A stretch of 64,000 bases of DNA, taken from NCBI GenBank assembly GCA_963666345.1, contig OY762721.1:1152001-1216000 (forward strand), in the 5' to 3' direction. Positions within the stretch are counted from its first letter, which is position 1, and the number at the start of each line of letters is the position of its first letter. This DNA comes from Desulfatiglandales bacterium (GTDB taxonomy: Bacteria; Desulfobacterota; DSM-4660; Desulfatiglandales; Desulfatiglandaceae). Position numbers and translations under genes: made by a program. The notes under the pieces are model-generated. The model saw nothing but the letters and a program-made list of their open reading frames with translations. It did not search any database and was not told where the DNA came from. Positions 7,600 to 63,680 of this stretch are shown piece by piece.

Positions 7600-8967
7600 A
7601 TGATATCTTTGTATGAAATTGCCGAAAGAACTCAAACTGGTGAAAAAGTGGAAGAAAAGAAATGGGATATGGAATTCTACCAAAACATCAGTGAGCTTCT
7701 CAAGAAATACCAAATACAGACCCCTGACGACCACTGCTATATTAATATGGATGATGAATTGCCTGAAAGAGCCTTTGAGGCAGCTATCGAATTTTTGGAA
7801 AAAACTGGGATCTACTGCATTACTACCAGAAGACGGATAAAGCTCACTAGAGAGGAAATCCTAACTGCAATTAACGAAGCTCCTACTGAAATTTTGATGG
7901 GCGAAGGAAGGGACCGAAGGGTCTGGAAACAACGCAGCATAGAAGAAAAGGAGAAGGTTAATGTCTGTCCAGGCCATCATACTCCTTTTACGGAAGATTT
8001 GGCAGGACTTGTGGTGAGTAATTTTGCCCAGATCCCCAGGACCGACTTTATTGAAGGATTCAATTTTTCCGAAGTCGATGGTCGAGAAATAATGGGGCCA
8101 CCCATGGAAGTATACGCTTCCAGGCGCCAGGTGGGATGGATGAGAGAAGGCATTCGTAAGGCTGGAAGGCCTGGCTTGGCCATTGTCTATTATCCTATTA
8201 ATACGAGAGCGGAAGATCTTATAGGTGCAATAGACCCCGATCATGGGATCAGAAGAACAGACGGCGTCTTGCTTTCCCTTTTGCCGGATTTGAAAATGGA
8301 ACAAGATATGCTATCAGCAGCCATTGTCTACGAGGAATATGGATCCTTTAAACTGAGCGGCAGTTTTGCCATCGCAGGTGGATTCTGTGGCGGTATGGAA
8401 GGCGCAATCATCGAAGGGATCGCTAAGCCTATTGCAGCCATGATTGCCTATCGGGACTATATCAATTACACCGGCGTAGAACATGTTCATATGCTTAACG
8501 CAAGAGTAATTCTGCTTCCATGGATCAATTGGGCTCGTTCCGTTGTGAATCAGGCCTTAAACCGTTTCACTCACACACTGTGTATGCGCTGGATCATACC
8601 AACCTCGGGGCCGGGTACCGAATTGAATCTTCTTGAAGGTGCAATGCAATCCATTGAGGCCCCCATAAATGGTATGAATCTCTATGCTCCAAGGCATTGC
8701 CGAACGACGGTTAACCATGGACAAACACCACTGGAAGCTGAATGGATGATTCAGGTTAGCGATGCGGTAATTGAACAGGGATTCGACAGACGAGCAGCTG
8801 ATGAAATTTTGTCGAAGATTGCCGATGTTATTAAGGATGAAAAGCCGGCAGAAGGCTTTGATATAACTCAGTGTTATGATCTTGTTCACCACAGACCACT
8901 GCCAGAATACCAAAACGTCTACATGAAAGTAAAAACGGAACTTGCAAATATGGGTCTGAAAATTTAA
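7600..8967 (+). CDS. MtmB-family corrinoid methyltransferase homolog 2, no pyrrolysine
   Basis: AGRPG, GGFCGG, SGPGTE, TPLEAEWM, QCYD motifs; Val196 (GTC, 8185-8187) at the Pyl-equivalent site. Confidence 0.85.
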   Translation: MISLYEIAERTQTGEKVEEKKWDMEFYQNISELLKKYQIQTPDDHCYINMDDELPERAFEAAIEFLEKTGIYCITTRRRIKLTREEILTAINEAPTEILMGEGRDRRVWKQRSIEEKEKVNVCPGHHTPFTEDLAGLVVSNFAQIPRTDFIEGFNFSEVDGREIMGPPMEVYASRRQVGWMREGIRKAGRPGLAIVYYPINTRAEDLIGAIDPDHGIRRTDGVLLSLLPDLKMEQDMLSAAIVYEEYGSFKLSGSFAIAGGFCGGMEGAIIEGIAKPIAAMIAYRDYINYTGVEHVHMLNARVILLPWINWARSVVNQALNRFTHTLCMRWIIPTSGPGTELNLLEGAMQSIEAPINGMNLYAPRHCRTTVNHGQTPLEAEWMIQVSDAVIEQGFDRRAADEILSKIADVIKDEKPAEGFDITQCYDLVHHRPLPEYQNVYMKVKTELANMGLKI

Positions 8968-9421
8968 GGTTCTTCTCCAACTTAGTTGGCGAAGAGGGTC
9001 CAAGGACCCTGGGAGTCAAGGCCCGCCCTGTCGCGACTCTGTGATCACTTAAATTATAGGCCAAGCTCCACATTGCCGACAATTTATTGACAATCCAGTA
9101 AGGTTAATAGGTCTGGGCCAGGGGTTCAAGGGATTGTTTTCTAAAGAGTTTATCAGCATTTTTAACAAGATTTATTGATCTCCGTGTAATTTATGTTGTT
9201 TGAGAATTTTTGATTTATTCTATATACCTGAAAAGCGTTCGTGGGATTTCTGCAACAGCTTTAAATCTTTGTAATGCTTTAGCGGTGTTATCAGCCGTTT
9301 CAATGGAGCACTCGAATCCTTGAATCCTCGACCCCTTCGAAACTGGGAACCCGCTGCGAAGCAGTGGGACTGAGCGAAGCAAAGAGTCCTTCATTTAGAT
9401 CAACTCTTTTGGAGATGGACC
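8968..9421. mobile_element. Non-autonomous TIR element, copy A, with internally deleted four-helix-bundle gene remnant
   Basis: Starts GGTTCTTCTCCAACTTAGTTGG and ends TTGGAGATGGACC; homologous to 15746-16277 and 63248-63680; minus strand LKHYKDLKLLQKS...LINSLEN; no clean target duplication. Confidence 0.75.
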
Positions 9422-9468
9422 CCAAATCTTTAATTGAGCCCATACCAATATCCTCTCAACATTATTAA

Positions 9469-9526
9469 AGCGAACACCCGGCTTCAGCACGTGCCATTAG
9501 GCGTCCGCTGAAAGCCGATGTTCGCT
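9469..9526 (-). repeat. attC-like site (58 bp)
   Basis: Minus strand AGCGAAC-atc-GGCTTTCAGC...GCTGAAGCC-gggt-GTTCGCT with an unpaired base in the L box. Confidence 0.75.
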
Positions 9527-9894
9527 GCCCCTTTTCTTTCGTTCCATGTTTGCGGATAGTAGAGCTTCAACACATTCCAAAATCTTTCACGAACCACCTG
9601 TTTCCCATTATGATAATCTTCGAAAAAGCCAACTTCATTCCATTCTGGGGGATAGCAGTAGCGTTCACCATCTTCGCCATATTGGCATACCCAAAAATCC
9701 GGCTCTTCTGGATCAATGACCTTGAAACAATCATCGTCATAAAGAACGGGATCATTACCATATGGTTTCGAATCCGCATCTGTAAGCAGCCTATATGCGC
9801 CTGCTTCAATTCCGAGGACCTCATATATACGGCCTATAGTAAGGGATAGACTATACCCCTTGGAATCTTTGAGCTTTATGGGTGATACTTTCAT
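9484..9894 (-). CDS. Hypothetical gene-cassette protein (likely start 9894; frame runs into the attC)
   Basis: Open frame bounded by GTTCGCTGC and GCAGCGAAC cassette cores. Confidence 0.65.
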   Translation of the reverse strand: MKVSPIKLKDSKGYSLSLTIGRIYEVLGIEAGAYRLLTDADSKPYGNDPVLYDDDCFKVIDPEEPDFWVCQYGEDGERYCYPPEWNEVGFFEDYHNGKQVVRERFWNVLKLYYPQTWNERKGAANIGFQRTPNGTC

Positions 9895-9903
9895 AATTTT
9901 AGC

Positions 9904-9944
9904 AGCGAACAATGCCATCACCGGAGGGGATGGCATTGTTCGCT
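9904..9944 (-). repeat. Short attC-like perfect hairpin between two cassettes
   Basis: GCAGCGAACAATGCCATC-N9-GATGGCATTGTTCGCTGC, 18-bp perfect stem with AAC/GTT cores. Confidence 0.6.
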
Positions 9945-9950
9945 GCCTGT

Positions 9951-10790
9951 CTACCCCTTATTGGCAATGACCGCAAACTCGCTTGATTTCGGATCATACG
10001 GTGTTCCAGCCAGGTCAGAATAATATCCTTTGATGGAAAGACTTGCCTCCTTAAATTCCCTCTCTAGATCTTCGGGTGCAAAATACTGTAACCAGTTGTA
10101 CACCTGCTTAGTGCGCTCAGACTCAATAATTGTGTATTTGTCCAGCACTACCTTCTCATCATCGTATTTGAATGTATTTAGAAAGCCATAATACTTGTTT
10201 GGTGACCAAAATCCGTTGAGCTGGTTCACCTCATATGTCGCGGCCTCTTCCCTTTGTTCGAATGCCGATAGGGAATAAATGTCAATAAGTACCGAACCGC
10301 CCGGTTTTAGGATCTTATGGAATTTGCGCAGAAGCCCTTTCCTTTGTTTTGGGCTAAGGGCGCAGAAATCACACATGATCATCAGGACCAGATTGAACCG
10401 GTCTTCTGTTTCAAACTCAAAGTAATTCTGATTCACGTAGCTGATGTTTAATTGCTCGCGGGTTGCGATATCCTTTGCGTACTCGATGGACCTCCCCGAA
10501 AAATCGATACCTGTCACATTTGCTCCGTGTTTCGCCAAACGTGCTGCGTATAATCCAGGACCACACCCAAAATCGGCTATCTTGGAATCTATGCCGATGT
10601 TGAACTGAGTTGCGATCCATTCCACCGATCGATTGATGAATTCCGCGTTTCGTGAAGAAACGTCGATCGCCTCGTCGAGGTGAAACAAGAGCATCTGTTT
10701 TGATGTATGTTCATCGGTCCATAGATCGCTTGCGGTGTAAAATTGAAACGGTTCCGGCCGTTCGTTAATCCCCTCTAATTCATCAAACAT
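9951..10790 (-). CDS. Class I SAM-dependent methyltransferase (cassette-borne)
   Basis: IADFGCGPG motif I, VTGIDFS, LKPGG. Confidence 0.9.
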   Translation of the reverse strand: MFDELEGINERPEPFQFYTASDLWTDEHTSKQMLLFHLDEAIDVSSRNAEFINRSVEWIATQFNIGIDSKIADFGCGPGLYAARLAKHGANVTGIDFSGRSIEYAKDIATREQLNISYVNQNYFEFETEDRFNLVLMIMCDFCALSPKQRKGLLRKFHKILKPGGSVLIDIYSLSAFEQREEAATYEVNQLNGFWSPNKYYGFLNTFKYDDEKVVLDKYTIIESERTKQVYNWLQYFAPEDLEREFKEASLSIKGYYSDLAGTPYDPKSSEFAVIANKG

Positions 10791-10814
10791 TCTCTATCCT
10801 TGTTTATTACACAG

Positions 10815-10921
10815 AACAGTCCCAATATGAGGAAAATTTTCCATCTATTGGCATATTTAAACATGAAATATGGAAAATTTCATATCGACTTTTCCACCTA
10901 ACAGATAATGCTATCGATATC
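10815..10921. promoter_or_regulatory. attI-like / intI upstream region, copy 1
   Basis: Homologous to 15526-15663; the homology begins exactly at the AAC (bottom-strand GTT) core next to the first cassette. Confidence 0.65.
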
Positions 10922-11035
10922 ATGGAAAGTTCAAAATTCCGACCGGATCCCAATCTTCGTCTCATGGATCAGGTGCGACAGGTCTTGAGTTATCACCATT
11001 ATTCCTATCGCAAAGTCCTGATGGTCAGGTCTTGA
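10922..11035 (+). pseudogene. intI: 5' stub of integron integrase
   Basis: MESSKFRPDPNLRLMDQVRQVLSYHHYSYR resembles the IntI N-terminus (LxDQVR..R.HHYSYR); homology stops near 11011. Confidence 0.75.
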
Positions 11036-11192
11036 ATGTTGAATGTCTGGGTTCTTTTTCGATTGCCCGAATCCTTTTCTTCAGGTTTCTGTTCTGATAA
11101 ATTTTGCTCTTTACCCATCAGCCGGCATCTATGTGAATGGTGCCCTTTATCTCAGCCTCCATGGGTTAATTCAAATTTCAGGACCTGACCCC
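11023..11192. repeat. REP/REPIN-like inverted-repeat element
   Basis: GGTCAGGTCTTGAA...TTCAGGACCTGACCCC inverted termini between the intI and RAYT stubs. Confidence 0.55.
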
Positions 11193-11202
11193 TCTGCCCC
11201 GT

Positions 11203-11283
11203 AAAAAGAAACTCTTTCTTGTGACATCTATGGGTAATATGCCACGCATATCCTGGTATGTAATGTCGATTTGCCCTTGGCAT
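11203..11283 (-). pseudogene. 5' stub of REP-associated tyrosine (Y1/HUH) transposase, RAYT-like
   Basis: MPRANRHYIPGYAWHITHRCHKKEFLF. Confidence 0.7.
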
Positions 11284-11360
11284 ATTGTCCCCGATTTCTT
11301 AGAAATTAAAGTTTGGCATCAAAATTAATAATTTAAGCCAAAAAACGCTTAACATTCCGA

Positions 11361-11408
11361 CATTTTAGCTTTATTTCAGTTGGTTACCTCGGTCCTACCC
11401 CCGATTAA
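11361..11408. repeat. Shared border sequence of the attI units, copy 1
   Basis: CATTTTAGCTTTATTTCAGTTGGTTACCTCG...CCGATTAA, repeated at 15686-15731. Confidence 0.7.
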
Positions 11409-11426
11409 CACTCTCTTATAATTTAA

Positions 11427-14400
11427 TCAACGCATGGCATCCAGATCAAGCGCGACTGATATTGACTCGTCGGTAGTTCCTTCGGACGGCTTGACCATTA
11501 AACGTTCGGTAGGCAGTCCTTCAGTACCGGTGGTCATCATTCTTACAATAGCCTGTGCCCTATTGTCCGCTAGCTGTTTGAGCGTTGATCTTTCAACCTG
11601 CTCACGTTTCACAAGATCGGCGAACAGCTGTTTGGCAAGTTTAGCGGGATTTTCAGATACCTGTGTTGTATCAGCATTTTTTTTCACCTGTTTTGATTTG
11701 ATTTTTTCATCCTCAGGCTCCTTTTCAGGTTTCAGGGCCTCGTAAGCCTCCTGACCGTACCTTTCAACCAGGATTTCCGCTAATTTCTCCAGAGATTGAG
11801 GATTGCTGAAATCCACAGGTCCCGGATCTTCTCCCGGAGCCAAATGCACCCCTGTTGCCTCTGCCACTGCTCGACGGACCTTAATCCGTTTGATTGCCTC
11901 TCCATCGGAATCGCTGTTATAGCGACCTGTAACTATAAGCTTTAAATTGGGTCTTTTACTAAGTGCATCGAGTAATTTCACCAGTTTTTCCTGTTCCGGC
12001 GGAGGGACTTCATGGCGCCCTGCTTCAAAAATTATGGCATCAAGTTCTTCCTCCTCACCCCCTAACAACCCTCCGAGGGCCTTGAAAGGGGCTGTGACTA
12101 TCTTGGTCAGCAGGTTAACCAAGGCCTTCCATACAAGCGGGCCGTAGCGGAATTCAGGGTCTTCAAGGCTGCCGGTTATCGGCAAATCCATATCGATTAC
12201 ACCATTTGAATCTCTTAATAGGGCAATGGCGAGATCAAGCGGGAGGTTCATGGCATCGGGACTTTCGACTTTTTCACCCAGCTTCAGGGTATCTATCACA
12301 ATCTTGTTTTGACTCAGCAGTTGGCTGTTTTCGATCTTGTATTGCAGATCCAGGGAAAGCTTGCCGGAGTCGATCTTACGTCCCGCAAATTTGCCAGAAT
12401 AAGGTGTCAGATTGCTCATATCCACGTTGCTAAATATCACGGAGATATCTGTATGCTCTTTCGGATTAAAGGAATTGATCTCACCTTTGATGTTACTGCT
12501 TCCATATTCATCAACACGGCCTTGGAGGTCAACCTGTGTCAGGGCACCCGGAGAAGAAGATATACCTATAACCGTACCTTTAAGTTCATGGATTTTTGAA
12601 GCAAACTGAGGTCTCAGGCTGAGATCGGCAAAATCCAGTTTGCCTCTATCGAGGCTCAGCCTTCCGACCCTCACAGAAAAGGGCTGCCCTTCAGACTTCG
12701 GAGAAGATTCTTTAGGTTTAATTTCCGCTGAAGCTCTATCTTTGTCGCTAAATGCCTCCACCAGATTAACCGTCTTATCTTTATAAATGATAAATTTTCC
12801 CTCCAGCCCGGCAAGTTTCAGGATATCCATTTTTATCTCATTTGGTTTCAAACTAAAAAAGAGATCCGGGGTCTCAAGCTGCTCCCATCCCATCAGGGTA
12901 GCAGTACTGGAGTTTTCAATGATCTTAAGATGTGAAAAACCTATCCGTCCCTTGTATGTCGTGCCTCCTTTTGAATTACGATTAAATGTCCCGGCTGTGG
13001 ACAAGAGGCCGGACTTCAGCGTAAGGTCTGCAGCAGCTTTGGCAAGATAGGGCTGTGCAACGGGCAGGGAAAAGTCAGTTACGGTAACATCGGACTTTAT
13101 CTCAAAGCTAACCGGGTCAAGCTTGCCCGATACCGAAAACTCACCGCCTTGGACAACCTTAAGAGAAATCTCGAATGGGGATGGAGACGTTCCATCAAAA
13201 CGTGAAACAGTCAGATTAATGTTATCTAGATCAATCAGAGTGCTGCCTGGTTTTACCGTTAAATCAAAGATCTTTGTTTTGAAGCCCGAAAGCGATGCCT
13301 TTTCAACCAAGTATTGCCAGCCATTGCTGTCCTTTTCTTTTGGAGCCTTCTCAGGGGCAACCTGTTCTGAGTCTTTTGAGACAAGCAATTGGGCAAGGTT
13401 GATTTTGTTATCCTTATCACGGATAACATTAACCATGCCGTTTGAAAGCTCCAAACGGGAAATGGAAGCAGACTTCGTACCAAGGTCAAAAGACCCATCC
13501 GCCAATGTCATGGCTTCTATCTCAACGGCCGGCTGGGAGGCAGTTAAGAATTCCATCGCGATCTGCTTAAGGCTCAGGCCAAGGTCATCAACCTTAAGTT
13601 GTGCCTCTGTCGAACCGACGTTGATAGCCGCATTGAAGGCTAGCCGGACTTCATCGGCGGAAAAGCGGGTCGGCTTGGCTTTGCTATGGTCTGTGAAATT
13701 AATCGCCAGTTTTTGAAGGTCAAAGTCCGCGATATTAATGGCCCAAGGGTTTCCTTTATCTTTTGTGCTAGATGAAGGGGACGAAACCGGTCTTGTTTCT
13801 GTCTTTCTGCTTGTGAGCCTATGGATGCTCAACACCCCATCCCGGTCCTTTATAAGGTTCAGGGTTCCTCCCCGGATTGCAAGGCTGACTGGATCGATTC
13901 TGTGTTGGACGAGATCCACTTTTTCAGCATCCACACTTATTTCAAGCAGGCTCAAGAAGGGTTTTTCTGCCCCTTTACGCTGAAGCTTAAGGTTATCGCT
14001 CTTCACACTCAAATCATTCAAGGCAAATACAGGATTGTCTTTGCTCAAATCGAGAAGGTATTGGGTTTCTATGTTCAGTTTACCCTCCGGAGGGGCAATG
14101 TTCAAAAGAGAACAGACAAAATGCCAAGGGGTTATCAGGGATATCTGTTGAAATGCCAAGCTGCCTTGAGAGCGCAGTGGCTGCAACGAAACCTGGCCCG
14201 ATCCTTTGAGGGTTGCGCCATCCGCGCTTGTCGTTAATGTGTATTGGCCCACACGATCGGGTAATGTTGAGATACCACTCAGCCGGATGTCTAGAGGGGA
14301 AAATGACACACTTGCCGGTTTGGGCTGTCGATTATCTGTAATATCAATCCGGGCCCGGTTGATCCCTGCATCATGCAGCAATAACCTTAATGGTTTGCTT

Positions 14401-14831
14401 TTCTTTTCATCAGATGCCGCTTTTTTCTCTCCTGCCAGACGGGTCAAATTAACTTCGCCATTCTTCTCAATTAAGATATTCACGGACGGCGCATCAACAG
14501 AGATCTCTGCAAAGGTGAGTGCCCAGCGGAAAAGACTGCTGATTTGAAAATTGACGTACAAACGCTGGAACCCGGCAATTGCTATTCCATCAGGTTCATT
14601 AATCTGAAAAGCCGTTGCCTCTAGTGACAGGGTATAGGGATTAATTTTAACCTGCTCAAGGGATACTTCACAGTCAAGGCGTTGACTGAGCGTCTGCGGA
14701 AGATAGCGTTCAATTAAAAATGGCATCAAGACGAACCCAGCAATCGTATATAGAGCTATCAAAATGGCGACAATAATGAAGGCTTTGCTCCTGACAATTC
14801 TGATAAAAGTCTCTTTTAATTTATCATTCAT
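11427..14831 (-). CDS. DUF748 domain (AsmA-like) envelope protein
   Basis: N-terminal TM helix, repeated beta-rich segments, LTPYSGKFAG, LPLDLAIALLRD..G.I..DLPI.G.L.DP.F, C-terminal LA..RA..I segment. Confidence 0.85.
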   Translation of the reverse strand: MNDKLKETFIRIVRSKAFIIVAILIALYTIAGFVLMPFLIERYLPQTLSQRLDCEVSLEQVKINPYTLSLEATAFQINEPDGIAIAGFQRLYVNFQISSLFRWALTFAEISVDAPSVNILIEKNGEVNLTRLAGEKKAASDEKKSKPLRLLLHDAGINRARIDITDNRQPKPASVSFSPLDIRLSGISTLPDRVGQYTLTTSADGATLKGSGQVSLQPLRSQGSLAFQQISLITPWHFVCSLLNIAPPEGKLNIETQYLLDLSKDNPVFALNDLSVKSDNLKLQRKGAEKPFLSLLEISVDAEKVDLVQHRIDPVSLAIRGGTLNLIKDRDGVLSIHRLTSRKTETRPVSSPSSSTKDKGNPWAINIADFDLQKLAINFTDHSKAKPTRFSADEVRLAFNAAINVGSTEAQLKVDDLGLSLKQIAMEFLTASQPAVEIEAMTLADGSFDLGTKSASISRLELSNGMVNVIRDKDNKINLAQLLVSKDSEQVAPEKAPKEKDSNGWQYLVEKASLSGFKTKIFDLTVKPGSTLIDLDNINLTVSRFDGTSPSPFEISLKVVQGGEFSVSGKLDPVSFEIKSDVTVTDFSLPVAQPYLAKAAADLTLKSGLLSTAGTFNRNSKGGTTYKGRIGFSHLKIIENSSTATLMGWEQLETPDLFFSLKPNEIKMDILKLAGLEGKFIIYKDKTVNLVEAFSDKDRASAEIKPKESSPKSEGQPFSVRVGRLSLDRGKLDFADLSLRPQFASKIHELKGTVIGISSSPGALTQVDLQGRVDEYGSSNIKGEINSFNPKEHTDISVIFSNVDMSNLTPYSGKFAGRKIDSGKLSLDLQYKIENSQLLSQNKIVIDTLKLGEKVESPDAMNLPLDLAIALLRDSNGVIDMDLPITGSLEDPEFRYGPLVWKALVNLLTKIVTAPFKALGGLLGGEEEELDAIIFEAGRHEVPPPEQEKLVKLLDALSKRPNLKLIVTGRYNSDSDGEAIKRIKVRRAVAEATGVHLAPGEDPGPVDFSNPQSLEKLAEILVERYGQEAYEALKPEKEPEDEKIKSKQVKKNADTTQVSENPAKLAKQLFADLVKREQVERSTLKQLADNRAQAIVRMMTTGTEGLPTERLMVKPSEGTTDESISVALDLDAMR

Positions 14832-14952
14832 TGCATACTCCTCATAGACCCATCGCGATTATTATTCCTTTTGAAGGTATCCTCTTAACCGGTAGCATTT
14901 TCCAACCGCCTGTCGTGCTTCATGATTATTGTATGGCTGTATCAATAAAAAA

Positions 14953-14971
14953 GGTTCATCCGGCAAATGCC
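14953..14971. repeat. Orphan ISL3 terminal inverted repeat
   Basis: GGTTCATCCGGCAAATGCC, 19/19 identical to the ends of the ISL3 at 20257-21605; no partner end seen. Confidence 0.7.
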
Positions 14972-15184
14972 TTATACCAATGAAGTCTTCAACTCGCGTA
15001 AAGGCCTCAACTTCTGTTAGCCCTGCCCTTGTCGTATTTTCCCATGCTTTTGCAGGACGTTTGACTCTTGATTCAGTGATCCTACCACGGACGCCCGTAC
15101 GAACAGCCAATTGACCAAGTCTGAGCCTCAGCAATAAGGTAATTTGTTAGGCGATAATACGAAAAACTCCATATCGGTCACTGT

Positions 15185-15460
15185 CTATTTTAGAAGCTCC
15201 TCTGCTTCTGATGGAGTTGCCAAAGGGTAGATGTCAAAACTTACGGGGACAATGTTTGTCCATTGCGTCATAAGTTTATGAAGCTCATCGTTTGAAGACA
15301 CATCAAAAATGGCAACAATGCCTCTGCCTACCCTTGGGTAGAAGCAAACAATTTTATCTTTTGATTTTAAATCATTAATCCAAGAAAAAAATCCCAATCT
15401 CGCGTTCTTTACATCTTCCGGCCTGGAAGGGTGCGGTGTACTCACTACTAAATATAGCAT
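15185..15460 (-). CDS. Small dimeric alpha/beta-barrel-like protein (DUF3303 / muconolactone-isomerase-like), cassette-borne
   Basis: About 91 aa, FYPRVGRG.VAIFDV.SN.ELH; bounded by GTCAGGCG and CGCCTAAC cores. Confidence 0.65.
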   Translation of the reverse strand: MLYLVVSTPHPSRPEDVKNARLGFFSWINDLKSKDKIVCFYPRVGRGIVAIFDVSSNDELHKLMTQWTNIVPVSFDIYPLATPSEAEELLK

Positions 15461-15525
15461 ATTCAAACACCTTCTTGATTTTCAGATTTTAATGTTTTTC
15501 TGTACAGTTTTGAAATTTTTCGCCT

Positions 15526-15731
15526 GACAGTTCCAATATAAGGAATATTTTCCATCTATTGTTTCTATAGAAAGGGAAAAAGTCCTCTTATTGGCATATT
15601 TAATCATAAAACATGGAAAAGTTCACATCGACTTTCCCATCTAACAGATAATGCCATCGATATCATGGAAAATTCAAAATTCCTCCATTTTAGCTTTATT
15701 TCAGTTAGTTACCTCGACGACCTCCGATTAA
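15526..15731. mobile_element. attI-like unit copy 2: attI region, first codons of intI (MENSKF) fused directly to the shared border
   Basis: Aligns with 10815-10940 (32-bp indel) and then with 11361-11408. Confidence 0.65.
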
Positions 15732-15745
15732 TTGTTTTTATATTG

Positions 15746-16277
15746 GGTTCTTCTCCAACTTAGTTGTCGAAGAGGGTCCAAGGATTCAAGGATTCAAGGG
15801 TTTTCTTTCCAGGGATCATCGCTTTGGACATTGCCCCGACATCCCCTATTTCCCTTCTTAATCTCTGAAGCCGCTCTTCTTTCAAATAACCCAGGTCAGC
15901 TGATGTCATGTCCCGGGTTTCCAATTCACAGGCTGAACCATATGCAATAAAGAAAAATTACATATACTCTATAGCCGTTTTTCTCCCATACCCTCAGGCG
16001 GTATCCCTTGATACGAAAACAGCGGATCTTCTGATTCGGGAGGTAAAACAGTATTGCTCATCTTTAAAAAAACGTTTCGTTTCTTTATACATATGCAAAC
16101 GAGGTGTATACAATTTTTGCCGAACGTTTAACTTCCTATGATCTTTAAGCTTTTCACTCGAACCCGCGGCCCCTTGACCCCTCCAAACCGGGAACCCGCT
16201 GCGAAGCAGTGGGACTGAGCTGAGCTAAGCGAGGGCGAAGAATCCTTCATTTAGACCAACTCTTTTGGAGATGATCC
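15746..16277. mobile_element. Non-autonomous TIR element, copy B, with near full-length four-helix-bundle pseudogene; 8-bp target duplication
   Basis: TIRs GGTTCTTCTCCAA / TTGGAGATGATCC; TTATATTG at 15738-15745 and 16278-16285; minus strand TSRIRRSAV..A*GYGRK..IAYGSACELET..DLGY. Confidence 0.85.
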
Positions 16278-16316
16278 TTATATTGTTGGTTTGGATTTAC
16301 GGGCAGGACAATTCTT

Positions 16317-16388: not shown

Positions 16389-16568
16389 CTATTCGGCATT
16401 CAGATCCTTCAAAATTTTTTTTGCTAATGGTTATTTGATCTCGGTATGCCGGGGGACAGTTTCCGTAGCTCCATTCTTCGGATTAATCCAAAGTGAATGC
16501 GAGGCCCCCTCCCTCTTCAGGTAGCAGCCCGCAATTCTCAATCTTCGCTCAAGGTCTCGTCGTTTCAT
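16389..16568 (-). pseudogene. hicA: HicA toxin with premature TAA at codon 46
   Basis: MKRRDLERRLRIAGCYLKREGASHSLWINPKNGATETVPRHTEIK*PLAKKILKDLNAE; ATGA overlap with hicB. Confidence 0.8.
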
Positions 16569-16783
16569 CCTATCAGAACCTTATCCTGGATCGCGTCATC
16601 AGGCAGCCCCCGAAGAATGTCGGCCTTGCGATCTTCCAAAATCAATTCAATAGCCTGACGCAGATTTGTTTTGGTTTCTTCTATTGTCTCGCCCTGTCCG
16701 TTGGCGCCGGGTACCTCCGGACAGATAGCCCAGAAGTCGCCCTCGGGAGCCGGTTCTATGATTGCCGTAAATTCAGCTTTCAT
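16565..16783 (-). CDS. hicB: HicB-family antitoxin
   Basis: MKAEFTAIIEP..EGDFWAICPEVPGANGQGETIEE...L..AI.LIL; AAGGAG RBS. Confidence 0.85.
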   Translation of the reverse strand: MKAEFTAIIEPAPEGDFWAICPEVPGANGQGETIEETKTNLRQAIELILEDRKADILRGLPDDAIQDKVLIG

Positions 16784-16810
16784 TATCATCTCCTTATTTA
16801 TCATTGAAAG

Positions 16811-16860
16811 AACCAACCTCTCGCCTGATTGACCGTAGCGGAACCGCAATCAGGCGAGAA
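16811..16860 (-). repeat. Degenerate attC-like hairpin upstream of hicB
   Basis: TCTCGCCTGATTG...CAATCAGGCGAGA stem followed by GTTGGTT on the minus strand. Confidence 0.4.
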
Positions 16861-17889: not shown

Positions 17890-17956
17890 CCCGGCACACA
17901 AGGTTAAACTGAGAGGCGCGTTTTTTTAGCGGTCGGCTCAAGTGATTGGTTCGCTT
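17890..17956 (-). repeat. Degenerate attC-like site after the RelE-type toxin
   Basis: Minus strand AAGCGAAC-caatcac-TTGAGCCGACCGC...GCGCCTCTCAGTTT; the AAGCGAAC core is complementary to GTTCGCTT at the cassette start. Confidence 0.6.
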
Positions 17957-18236
17957 ATGTGCTTTTGACATACGTCTTCAGATCGCGATAATAATTCTCA
18001 TGGGGGCCAATCATTATCAATTCGAGGTCTTCCGCCACGAATCTGTAAGCCAAAAGATACTGAGTCGTCTTAATATTATACTTATGGACGTAGATCCCTC
18101 GCAGATCACCTTTCTTTTCGGTACCAATAGCCGGATTTTCAGCAATGAGCTTGACTTGTTCATCAAGTTGCAACTTCTGTGTCTTGCTGAACTTCTTGAC
18201 TTTTCGCGCAAACGATCTTGATTGAAGAATCTTCAT
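17955..18236 (-). CDS. RelE/ParE-family toxin
   Basis: F.RKVKK, NP.IG..KKGDL, LLAY, IGPHENYYRDLK. Confidence 0.85.
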   Translation of the reverse strand: MKILQSRSFARKVKKFSKTQKLQLDEQVKLIAENPAIGTEKKGDLRGIYVHKYNIKTTQYLLAYRFVAEDLELIMIGPHENYYRDLKTYVKST

Positions 18237-63247: not shown

Positions 63248-63680
63248 GGTTCTTCTCCCGATTAGTTGGTGTTAAACAGGGCTAAATAAAGAAATCCTTC
63301 TTATTTAAGCGGCTGAGTGCTCGTAGGATTCTTCGCCCTCGCTTAGCTCAGCTCAGTCCCACTGCTTCGCAGCGGGTTCCCGGTTTCTTTGCTCCGCTTG
63401 CGCTTCGCTCAGTCCCACTGCTTCGCAGCGGGTTCCCGGTTTCAAGGGGTCTAGGATTCAAGGATTCCAGTGCTCCATTGAAACGGCGGATACGCTAAAG
63501 CGTTACAAAGATTTAAAGCTGTTGCAGAAATCCTGCGAATGCTTTTCAGGTATAGAATAAATGAAAAATTCTCAAATAACATGAGGTACACAGAGCTCAA
63601 TAAATCGTTAAAAATACTGATAAAGTCTTAAAAAAAACAAACCCTTGGACCCTCTTCGCCAACTAAGTTGGAGAAGAACC
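63248..63680. mobile_element. Non-autonomous TIR element, copy C, inverted relative to A and B
   Basis: GGTTCTTCTCC...GGAGAAGAACC perfect 11-bp TIR; flanks ACCTGTAT / ACCTTTAT (7/8); plus strand LKRYKDLKLLQKS...LKILIKS. Confidence 0.8.

Follow-up and report, generated by a model that had tools for sequence, protein, structure and literature searches.

Two integron units with truncated integrase genes beside the end of a RAYT-related element in a Desulfatiglandales genome

Two small integron units lie 4.7 kb apart and in the same orientation in a 64,000-nucleotide stretch of the genome of a Desulfatiglandales bacterium (G000:C1:1152001-1216000, hereafter the window; whole genome 4.16 Mb). Each unit consists of one or two gene cassettes, an attI recombination site and the first codons of the integrase gene intI, and each ends in the same short border. 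They are probably what is left, after local duplication and decay, of one chromosomal integron platform from a Desulfobacterales-type lineage, associated with an insertion sequence (IS)-like element that encodes a relative of the RAYT proteins (REP-associated tyrosine transposases; REP, repetitive extragenic palindromic), and not a mobile composite. An earlier interpretation of the same DNA, made without database searches (the sequence-only reading), had proposed such a composite, an ancestor made of intI and a RAYT gene whose deleted derivatives disperse attI capture sites that could be loaded in trans. By the observations it had itself put forward as tests, among them the number of copies and the linkage of intact intI and rayt genes in relatives, the mobile composite appears for the most part refuted or else unsupported.

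For comparison, 105 genomes of the same family were searched. The attI region was aligned across 15 loci, comprising the three copies of this genome and 12 loci from Desulfobacterales-type relatives, and the RAYT element across 10 copies from 8 genomes together with the window's two borders and a remnant at 3104 kb. A set of 80 loci with full-length cognate intI came from public genomes, mostly Desulfobacterales-type metagenome-assembled genomes; at least 1 kb of sequence follows intI downstream in 73 of these and on the cassette side in 44. The two-unit structure is not an assembly artefact, because an independent metagenome contig (L152) is collinear with window positions 10666-16215 at 99.98% identity. 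A metagenome scan with the junction of unit 2 matched one contig, from the same strain and in the same context, and is silent on mobility. Rfam at its gathering threshold gave no match anywhere in the window.

attI and intI in the two units

The attI and intI remnants of the two units are as follows.

10816-10921, plus strand: attI of unit 1; crossover at its left edge (bottom strand ACTG|TT); 32 bp lost, including one of three TTTCCAYCTATTG boxes
10922-11035, plus strand: intI pseudogene stub of unit 1; ATG at 10922, 37 codons open, about 31 of them homologous to IntI
15527-15664, plus strand: attI of unit 2; full length; crossover at its left edge (bottom strand ACTG|TC)
15665-15683, plus strand: intI start of unit 2; codons 1-6, joined within AAAATTCC(GAC), a microhomology, to an internal part of the RAYT left end

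Homology between the units begins at A10816 in unit 1 and A15527 in unit 2, where the bottom strand reads ACTG|TTCTGT and ACTG|TCAGGC, respectively. Positions 10816-10850 and 15527-15561 are 91% identical, and positions 10830-10940 and 15573-15683 are 86% identical without gaps, or 90% by blastn against the whole 4.16-Mb genome (E 3e-31). Apart from a slight correction of coordinates, this bears out the earlier observation that the units share attI and the intI start, with homology running from a GTT/GTC core beside different first cassettes. A stretch of 32 bp in the attI of unit 2 is absent from unit 1. A third attI with an intI stub was found 420 kb away at genome positions 741312-741502. 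Its intI has a stop at codon 4, its first cassette is yet another one, and it has neither RAYT nor border.

Sequences of this kind are widespread in the family. Part of unit 1 is matched in 48 of the 105 genomes, and the attI plus intI 5' segment shares 73-82% DNA identity with many relatives' loci. The two units are about 90% identical to each other and at most 82% identical to any other copy found. Across the 15 aligned loci, the conserved attI contains three TTTCCAYCTATTG boxes, each opposite a GGAAAA word, and the 32 bp gone from unit 1 lie between two copies of this box and are kept in all 14 other loci. Similarity on the cassette side ends at one point in nearly all of the aligned loci (bottom strand ACTG|TT, top strand ...AAC|AGT), and the bases past the crossover often fit GTTRRRY, as in GTTGGGC, GTTGGAC and GTTAGGG. 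Since cassettes abut at the same G|TT in nearly all of them, the attI sites of the stubs can be taken as genuine capture sites, as had been supposed.

The part of intI that encodes the IntI-specific extra domain is gone from both units, with 31 homologous codons left in unit 1 and 6 in unit 2. The stub of unit 1 matches IntI residues 3-31 at 83% identity (tblastn). In G093, G080, G005, G044 and G097 (two loci), the matching locus runs on into a full-length IntI of 330-331 aa. The relatives' full-length IntI scores 444 bits against TIGR02249 (cut-off 265), and its N-terminus is homologous to the window stubs. This genome has a sole intact IntI (1359012-1359980, 472 bits), which is 54% identical to the stub lineage over 318 aa. 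A genome-wide blastn query with the stub attI gave no match upstream of this gene, and no TTTCCAYCTATTG box was seen in the inspected region upstream of it. As no cognate IntI remains in the genome, the attI sites are most likely inert relics today, and the idea that they are at present loaded in trans finds no support in the one integrase available.

Integron decay is common among the relatives, where at least 11 further intI stub or pseudogene loci have varied breakpoints, frameshifts and stop codons. Three of the relatives' stubs break at the same codon 47-48 (GGTACCAYG; L047 in G091, L044 in G100 and L023 in G101). These represent two separate events, namely the right end of a RAYT element in G091 and a deletion common to G100 and G101, whose loci are orthologous and hence record one event. 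What follows the break in the latter two was considered as the end of a multi-copy element and proved not to be one. Codons 47-48 of intI may be a fragile or preferred break site.

The common border and the joints within the units

The features between the intI remnants and the outer edge of the border are listed below.

11023-11190, no strand: small MITE-like element (MITE, miniature inverted-repeat transposable element) of about 168 bp in unit 1, with 22-nt inverted repeats; it sits where intI and RAYT are both cut off
11152-11283, minus strand: 5' stub of a RAYT-like Y1 HUH transposase gene in unit 1; 27 codons by DNA homology, residues 1-33 by tblastn
11284-11401, minus strand: RAYT element left end in unit 1; 5' leader and terminal inverted repeat, with the outer end GGTCCTACCCC at 11391-11401
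15676-15725, minus strand: RAYT left-end remnant in unit 2; degenerate terminal repeat with a 2-bp gap, then GATTAAT, as in unit 1

The border that had been noticed in both units was confirmed and extends somewhat further, from 11351 to 11408 in unit 1 and from 15676 to 15731 in unit 2 (84.5% identity, E 6e-11). Two further copies lie elsewhere in the genome without attI (3692751-3692848 and 3104862-3104927). The count of copies by blastn, which the sequence-only reading had called for, thus turned up a third attI and two more borders, none of which combines both parts. An intact RAYT-like gene at genome position 3692874, encoding 266 aa, carries the same 125-bp upstream region. Its product scores 38 bits against PF01797 (cut-off 23), 75.2 bits against NF047646, the NCBIfam RAYT model (cut-off 80), and 23.8 bits against the IS200-type TnpA model NF033573, below the cut-off of 55. 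The stub in unit 1 has neither the HUH motif nor the catalytic tyrosine region.

The alignment of RAYT copies outlines an element with defined ends. Upstream, homology sets in about 125 bp ahead of the ATG, at GGGGTCGGACCRAG, in 8 of the 10 copies and in the three remnants; G092b, G061 and G097 have no clear match to this end. Downstream, it ends about 20 bp past the stop codon at the reverse complement CTYGGTCCGACCCC in 8 of 9 aligned regions, with G072a diverging. Most aligned copies therefore carry terminal inverted repeats of 14-16 bp (GGGGTCGGACCRAG upstream and its reverse complement downstream). G072a and G072b, which lie on one contig, lose their mutual similarity exactly at the upstream end. 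Because most aligned copies end at GGGGTCGGACCRAG and CTYGGTCCGACCCC, the RAYT gene is a discrete unit enclosed by terminal inverted repeats. The common border is thus the left end of this element plus about 7 bp of shared flank, the seven bases past the element end (11402-11408) being common to both units.

The RAYT element occurs without integron parts both in this genome and in relatives. Matches to the RAYT-like family were found in 89 of the 105 genomes, with 6 in this genome and up to 21 in one relative, and consist mostly of numerous 5' or 3' fragments. The repeat word shows no dispersal, as 37 matches with at most one mismatch were found in the genome against about 47 expected from shuffles, and about 10 of these resemble element ends. 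In its copies the element behaves like an IS, unlike RAYT genes that are present once and accompanied by REPINs. No single fixed word recurs in the left flanks of 12 element copies.

Several other RAYT-like loci were observed. Same-strand clusters occur in G097 (7.00-7.02 Mb), on contig C721 of G092 and on contig C14 of G072. At genome positions 3104862-3105520, a solitary RAYT left-end remnant is followed by a canonical IS200-type tnpA, and the genome has six near-identical IS200 copies, with separate canonical ones elsewhere in it. At 1342980-1344320, on the cassette side and 15 kb from the intact intI, a RAYT-like gene is split by a small inserted GIY-YIG-like open reading frame (ORF), and the left end of this element is present in tandem as two 120-bp copies.

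Both units have been shortened by deletion, at different places. In unit 1, intI homology ends at about 11012-11030 and RAYT homology at about 11195-11204, which are the two ends of the 168-bp element. The arms of its inverted repeat (11023-11044 and 11169-11190) are 22 nt long and 86% complementary, and two more partial copies of the element lie at genome positions 3541072-3541201 and 2764583-2764683. The description of unit 1 as an IntI stub facing a convergent RAYT stub stands, with about 31 and 27 codons, respectively. The repeat between them, which had been called REP-like, consists of the ends of a separate MITE-like element with three copies, which marks a deletion junction and has no relation to the repeats that flank the RAYT gene.

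In unit 2, intI codons 1-6 (15665-15683) run straight into the border, and everything between the first intI codons and the border is gone, just as had been described. What is missing corresponds to a 410-bp deletion between direct repeats matching at 10 of 11 nt, AAAATTCCGAC within codons 4-8 of intI and AACATTCCGAC within the leader of the RAYT gene. In unit 2 (15676-15683) the attI/intI repeat and the border repeat have 8 nt in common, a word that unit 1 has at both parental sites. This overlap at a shared word shows that unit 2 arose by microhomology deletion from a unit-1-like or longer precursor, in keeping with its earlier interpretation as a deletion derivative. The joint lies inside the RAYT left end and not at its terminus; it was made by deletion and is no transposition joint.

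Cassettes, the intervening gene and the flanking MITE copies

The remaining features of the two units and their surroundings are as follows.

8968-9426, no strand: abundant MITE, copy A, which is less long than copy B; follows immediately on the stop codon of an MtmB-like gene, with AT-rich flanks AAATTTAA / AAATCTTTAA that resemble its own target duplication
9469-9526, minus strand: attC of unit 1's second cassette; boxes AGCGAAC (R'') and GTTCGCT (R'); single imperfect bulged hairpin, -19.7 kcal/mol
9484-9894, minus strand: cassette ORF of unit 1, 136 aa; no family match
9904-9944, minus strand: short attC of the first cassette of unit 1; boxes AGCGAAC/GTTCGCT; -24.4 kcal/mol
9951-10790, minus strand: cassette ORF of unit 1, S-adenosylmethionine-dependent methyltransferase, 279 aa (PF13649, E 1e-20)
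11427-14831, minus strand: gene for a DUF748/AsmA-like protein of 1134 aa between the units; no recognisable cassette
15098-15152, minus strand: tentative attC of the single cassette of unit 2; weak fold, -6.4 kcal/mol
15185-15466, minus strand: cassette ORF of unit 2, DUF3303/muconolactone-isomerase-like protein of 93 aa
15746-16278, no strand: copy B of the abundant MITE, 533 bp; simple insertion, with the 7-bp duplication TATATTG at 15739-15745 and 16279-16285

In the tentative attC of unit 2, the R'' box GCCTAAC is complementary to the cassette's own start, (G)TCAGGC. A strict gapless attC scan and a fold-filtered scan both returned the two sites of unit 1 only. A looser scan found nothing convincing even in a bona fide array of a relative (L040), and these crude scans are no basis for a census. 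A scan for perfect R''/R' pairing showed no enrichment, even at this genome's own integron. The cassette proteins have no paralogues elsewhere in the genome, and the ORFs of the window share no synteny with the relatives' integron loci. The DUF748 gene is matched in 33 of the 105 family genomes, and its best full-length match is 55% identical (G069).

The abundant MITE was queried by blastn with its ends and gave about 90-107 matches in the genome, many of them partial or overlapping; 14 matches are at least 430 bp long, with 71-97% identity. Since each copy beside the units has its own target duplication, copies A and B are late, independent insertions. The ends of this MITE are imperfect terminal inverted repeats (TCTCCAA...AGTTG) with 7-bp AT-rich target duplications, and within it lie a conserved GC hairpin GGGAACCCGCTGCGAAGCAGTGGGAC and, on the minus strand, an ORF of 54 aa. 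A further copy lies in the window at 63325-63680. At 7600-8967 the window encodes a 455-aa homologue of the MtmB family (monomethylamine methyltransferase) in one open frame without an internal stop. To the right of copy B, HicA/HicB-like and ParE-like toxin-antitoxin genes lie on the minus strand at 16431-16849 and 17955-18236. Toxin-antitoxin genes are typical cassette content, and the region right of copy B may be a further attC cluster.

Origin of the units and relation to known systems

Decay of a locally duplicated platform would proceed from an ancestral cassette array with attI and intI, in which a convergent IS-like RAYT element stood next to or inside intI. Because both units share the RAYT neighbour, this convergent arrangement already existed in their common ancestor, and to that extent the proposed joint ancestry of intI and RAYT stands. 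The segment from attI to just past the element's left end would have been duplicated locally, and the two copies would have diverged by about 10%. The later steps can be read from the two units as they are now. Unit 1 lost the DNA from about intI codon 31 to about RAYT codon 27, with the small MITE-like element at the junction, as well as 32 bp of attI between two repeated attI boxes. Unit 2 lost 410 bp between direct repeats, by which intI codon 6 was fused to an inner part of the RAYT left end. Copies of the abundant 533-bp MITE inserted afterwards on both outer sides, with its own target duplications. The different first cassettes at the exact G|TT would reflect IntI-mediated cassette turnover at a time when a cognate IntI was available.

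A number of observations weigh against this history. The units have no additional homology around them, and their repeat stops on one side at the IntI crossover, which a plain segmental duplication does not predict; on the other side it extends about 7 bp beyond the RAYT terminus. Both units have lost the junction between intI and the right end of the RAYT element, which makes a RAYT inside intI indistinguishable from one just downstream. The best DUF748 match (G069) has no shared neighbours and so offers no empty site for comparison. The attC sites were identified by hand and by folding with DNA parameters only. In addition, another genus (G091) also has a RAYT remnant that converges on an intI stub, and RAYT pieces lie on the cassette side in G050 and G099 (0.9 and 4 kb from attI), at L107 and near this genome's own intact integron. 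The RAYT element may therefore have some real affinity for integrons.

The exact position of the repeat end suggests that the duplication might have been made by the integrase itself. A cognate IntI encoded elsewhere, since lost, would have recombined attI with attC by unequal exchange or circle insertion after intI had been damaged, an event that would create a second platform and leave the attI sites with different first cassettes. In the two units, as in the third copy, the repeat stops precisely at the G|TT crossover on one side. On the bottom strand, the DNA between the attC of unit 2 and the attI of unit 1 (15097 down to 10816) has a G|TT at either edge, as would an oversized cassette with attI serving as its site. 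The combination of a common RAYT neighbour with different cassettes would also follow. This explanation has to contend with the present lack of a cognate IntI, given that the sole intact IntI is 54% identical and that genome-wide blastn placed no stub-attI match upstream of it, and with the weak attC of unit 2 (-6.4 kcal/mol). Moreover, with the RAYT downstream of an intact ancestral intI, each copy could have swapped cassettes by its own IntI before the deletions. Whether an integrase in trans is needed thus depends on whether the RAYT had already killed intI in the ancestor, which the deleted junction hides. An IntI-mediated duplication event or later cassette turnover at each attI are both possible, but loading in trans as the origin of the second platform is in our judgement unlikely. 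A broader scenario, in which solo attI platforms are live in trans and a RAYT-related element with an affinity for the integrons of sulfate-reducing Desulfobacterales inserts time and again at intI or among cassettes, seeding breakage, duplication and perhaps relocation of modules made of attI and cassettes, has a slim chance of being correct.

The sequence-only reading placed the cause in the RAYT, with a composite intI-RAYT element moved by the transposase and deleted derivatives spreading attI sites around genomes. The two units do share attI and the RAYT end, the intact RAYT-like gene at 3692874 could act in trans, and the family is multi-copy and rich in fragments, as its matches in 89 of 105 genomes and up to 21 in one genome indicate. 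The inverted-repeat ends of the element, however, enclose the RAYT gene only. The case in G091, a different genus, can be read in the composite's favour as another convergent intI stub beside a RAYT remnant, and is the only such convergent adjacency among the stub loci examined in relatives. There, 7 nt separate intI codon 48 from the right end of a truncated RAYT element, and the two genes converge as in unit 1; this end stands between RAYT and intI, and the integron parts are therefore outside the element. Intact intI and rayt are likewise not linked, as a RAYT-like gene was found downstream of full-length cognate intI at none of the 73 loci with at least 1 kb there, and on the cassette side at 2 of 44. 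On one side the homology of the units extends about 7 bp beyond the element terminus, on the other it breaks off at the IntI crossover rather than at a RAYT-type end, and the junction in unit 2 is an internal microhomology deletion rather than a transposition joint. Dispersal of attI by an HUH transposase would also be expected to leave attI and border together at more than one place, but they occur together in the two adjacent units only, 4.7 kb apart, and the third attI has neither. We therefore regard a mobile composite as very improbable.

Two other explanations concern how the units came to lie where they are. Related platforms that already had a RAYT neighbour may have been inherited or acquired separately and may now be close by chance or rearrangement. 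Their identity of only about 90%, the 32-bp indel and the entirely different cassettes would fit two arrivals, as would the same intI-RAYT adjacency in another genus. This is nevertheless very improbable, as the units resemble each other more (90%) than either resembles any further copy found (at most 82%), share 7 bp beyond the element end, and lie 4.7 kb apart in the same orientation. A block of 6.3 kb might also have been moved by its two flanking MITE copies, which are direct copies (8968-9426 and 15746-16278), as in some class 1 integrons, for which there is precedent (PMC3575428). We give this next to no credence and rejected it, because each MITE has its own target duplication, TATATTG around copy B and a AAATTTAA-like one around copy A, and the outer flanks do not match, so that no duplication lies on the outer flanks alone. 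Blastn placed about 90-107 matches in the genome, among them many that are partial or overlap, so that a pair of copies within 7 kb is unremarkable.

Local duplication followed by decay, which we continue to prefer, resembles several known situations. IS1111-attC elements and group IIC-attC introns target attC sites. ISCR1 is an IS91-like rolling-circle element. The units recall the degenerate integrons and CALINs (clusters of attC sites without an integrase) of IntegronFinder (Cury et al. 2016, PMC4889954), which also have attC cassettes and no working intI nearby, and intI pseudogenes are known. According to that survey, CALINs can arise through loss of intI, and IS-linked rearrangement has been proposed as another origin (PMC4889954). 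In this case, unlike in CALINs, attI and the first 6-31 intI codons survive, and the platform is present three times in one genome, twice with the same IS end. The survey also reports IS within the cassettes of 23% of complete integrons (PMC4889954). As in such cases, a transposable element stands at an integron and goes together with inactivation and rearrangement. Here, in contrast to other integron-associated IS, the element encodes a RAYT-related Y1 HUH protein, and no targeting of attC or attI is shown.

A link between HUH elements and integrons is known from the complex class 1 integrons associated with ISCR1, in which an HUH element lies beside the integron and integron parts are duplicated (PMC3575428). 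They represent an established way by which HUH elements move DNA adjacent to integrons. ISCR1 is described there as lacking inverted repeats, having oriIS and terIS ends that differ from each other and moving by one-ended transposition (PMC3575428), whereas the element in this genome is a Y1 RAYT-like one bounded by inverted repeats and gives no evident sign of mobilising integron DNA. Integron blocks between two MITE copies are likewise described as MITE-flanked class 1 integrons or integron mobilisation units (PMC3575428); here the target duplications point to two independent MITE insertions instead. With the RAYT/REPIN system (Bertels and Rainey 2011; Bertels et al. 2017, PMC5581495) the element shares a Y1 HUH protein and a gene flanked by inverted short repeats, and RAYT groups are described as differing in copy number and REPIN association (PMC5581495). 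It differs in having no dispersed REP/REPIN population, in being multi-copy and fragmentary instead of a single vertically kept copy, and in its profile score (75.2 against the cut-off of 80). The IS200/IS605 elements have no terminal inverted repeats, carry subterminal hairpins and stand beside a fixed target word at the left end. The present element has inverted-repeat ends and no single fixed left-flank word. No RAYT-integron link was found among the matches listed in a full-text literature search, as judged from titles and the starts of abstracts.

These units are an example of how an integron platform may decay, with an IS beside intI, a MITE-associated deletion and microhomology deletions. 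They indicate that attI and N-terminal intI stubs can outlive the integrase. Searches that rely on the C-terminal domain of IntI would miss such stubs, and some "CALINs" may therefore still hold an attI. For annotation, the comparison provides a conserved attI for a widespread Desulfobacterales IntI lineage, with three TTTCCAYCTATTG boxes and the crossover ACTG|TT, as well as the ends of an IS-like relative of RAYT. Should loading in trans prove true, attI sites that have no intI would have to be regarded as functional sites of capture.

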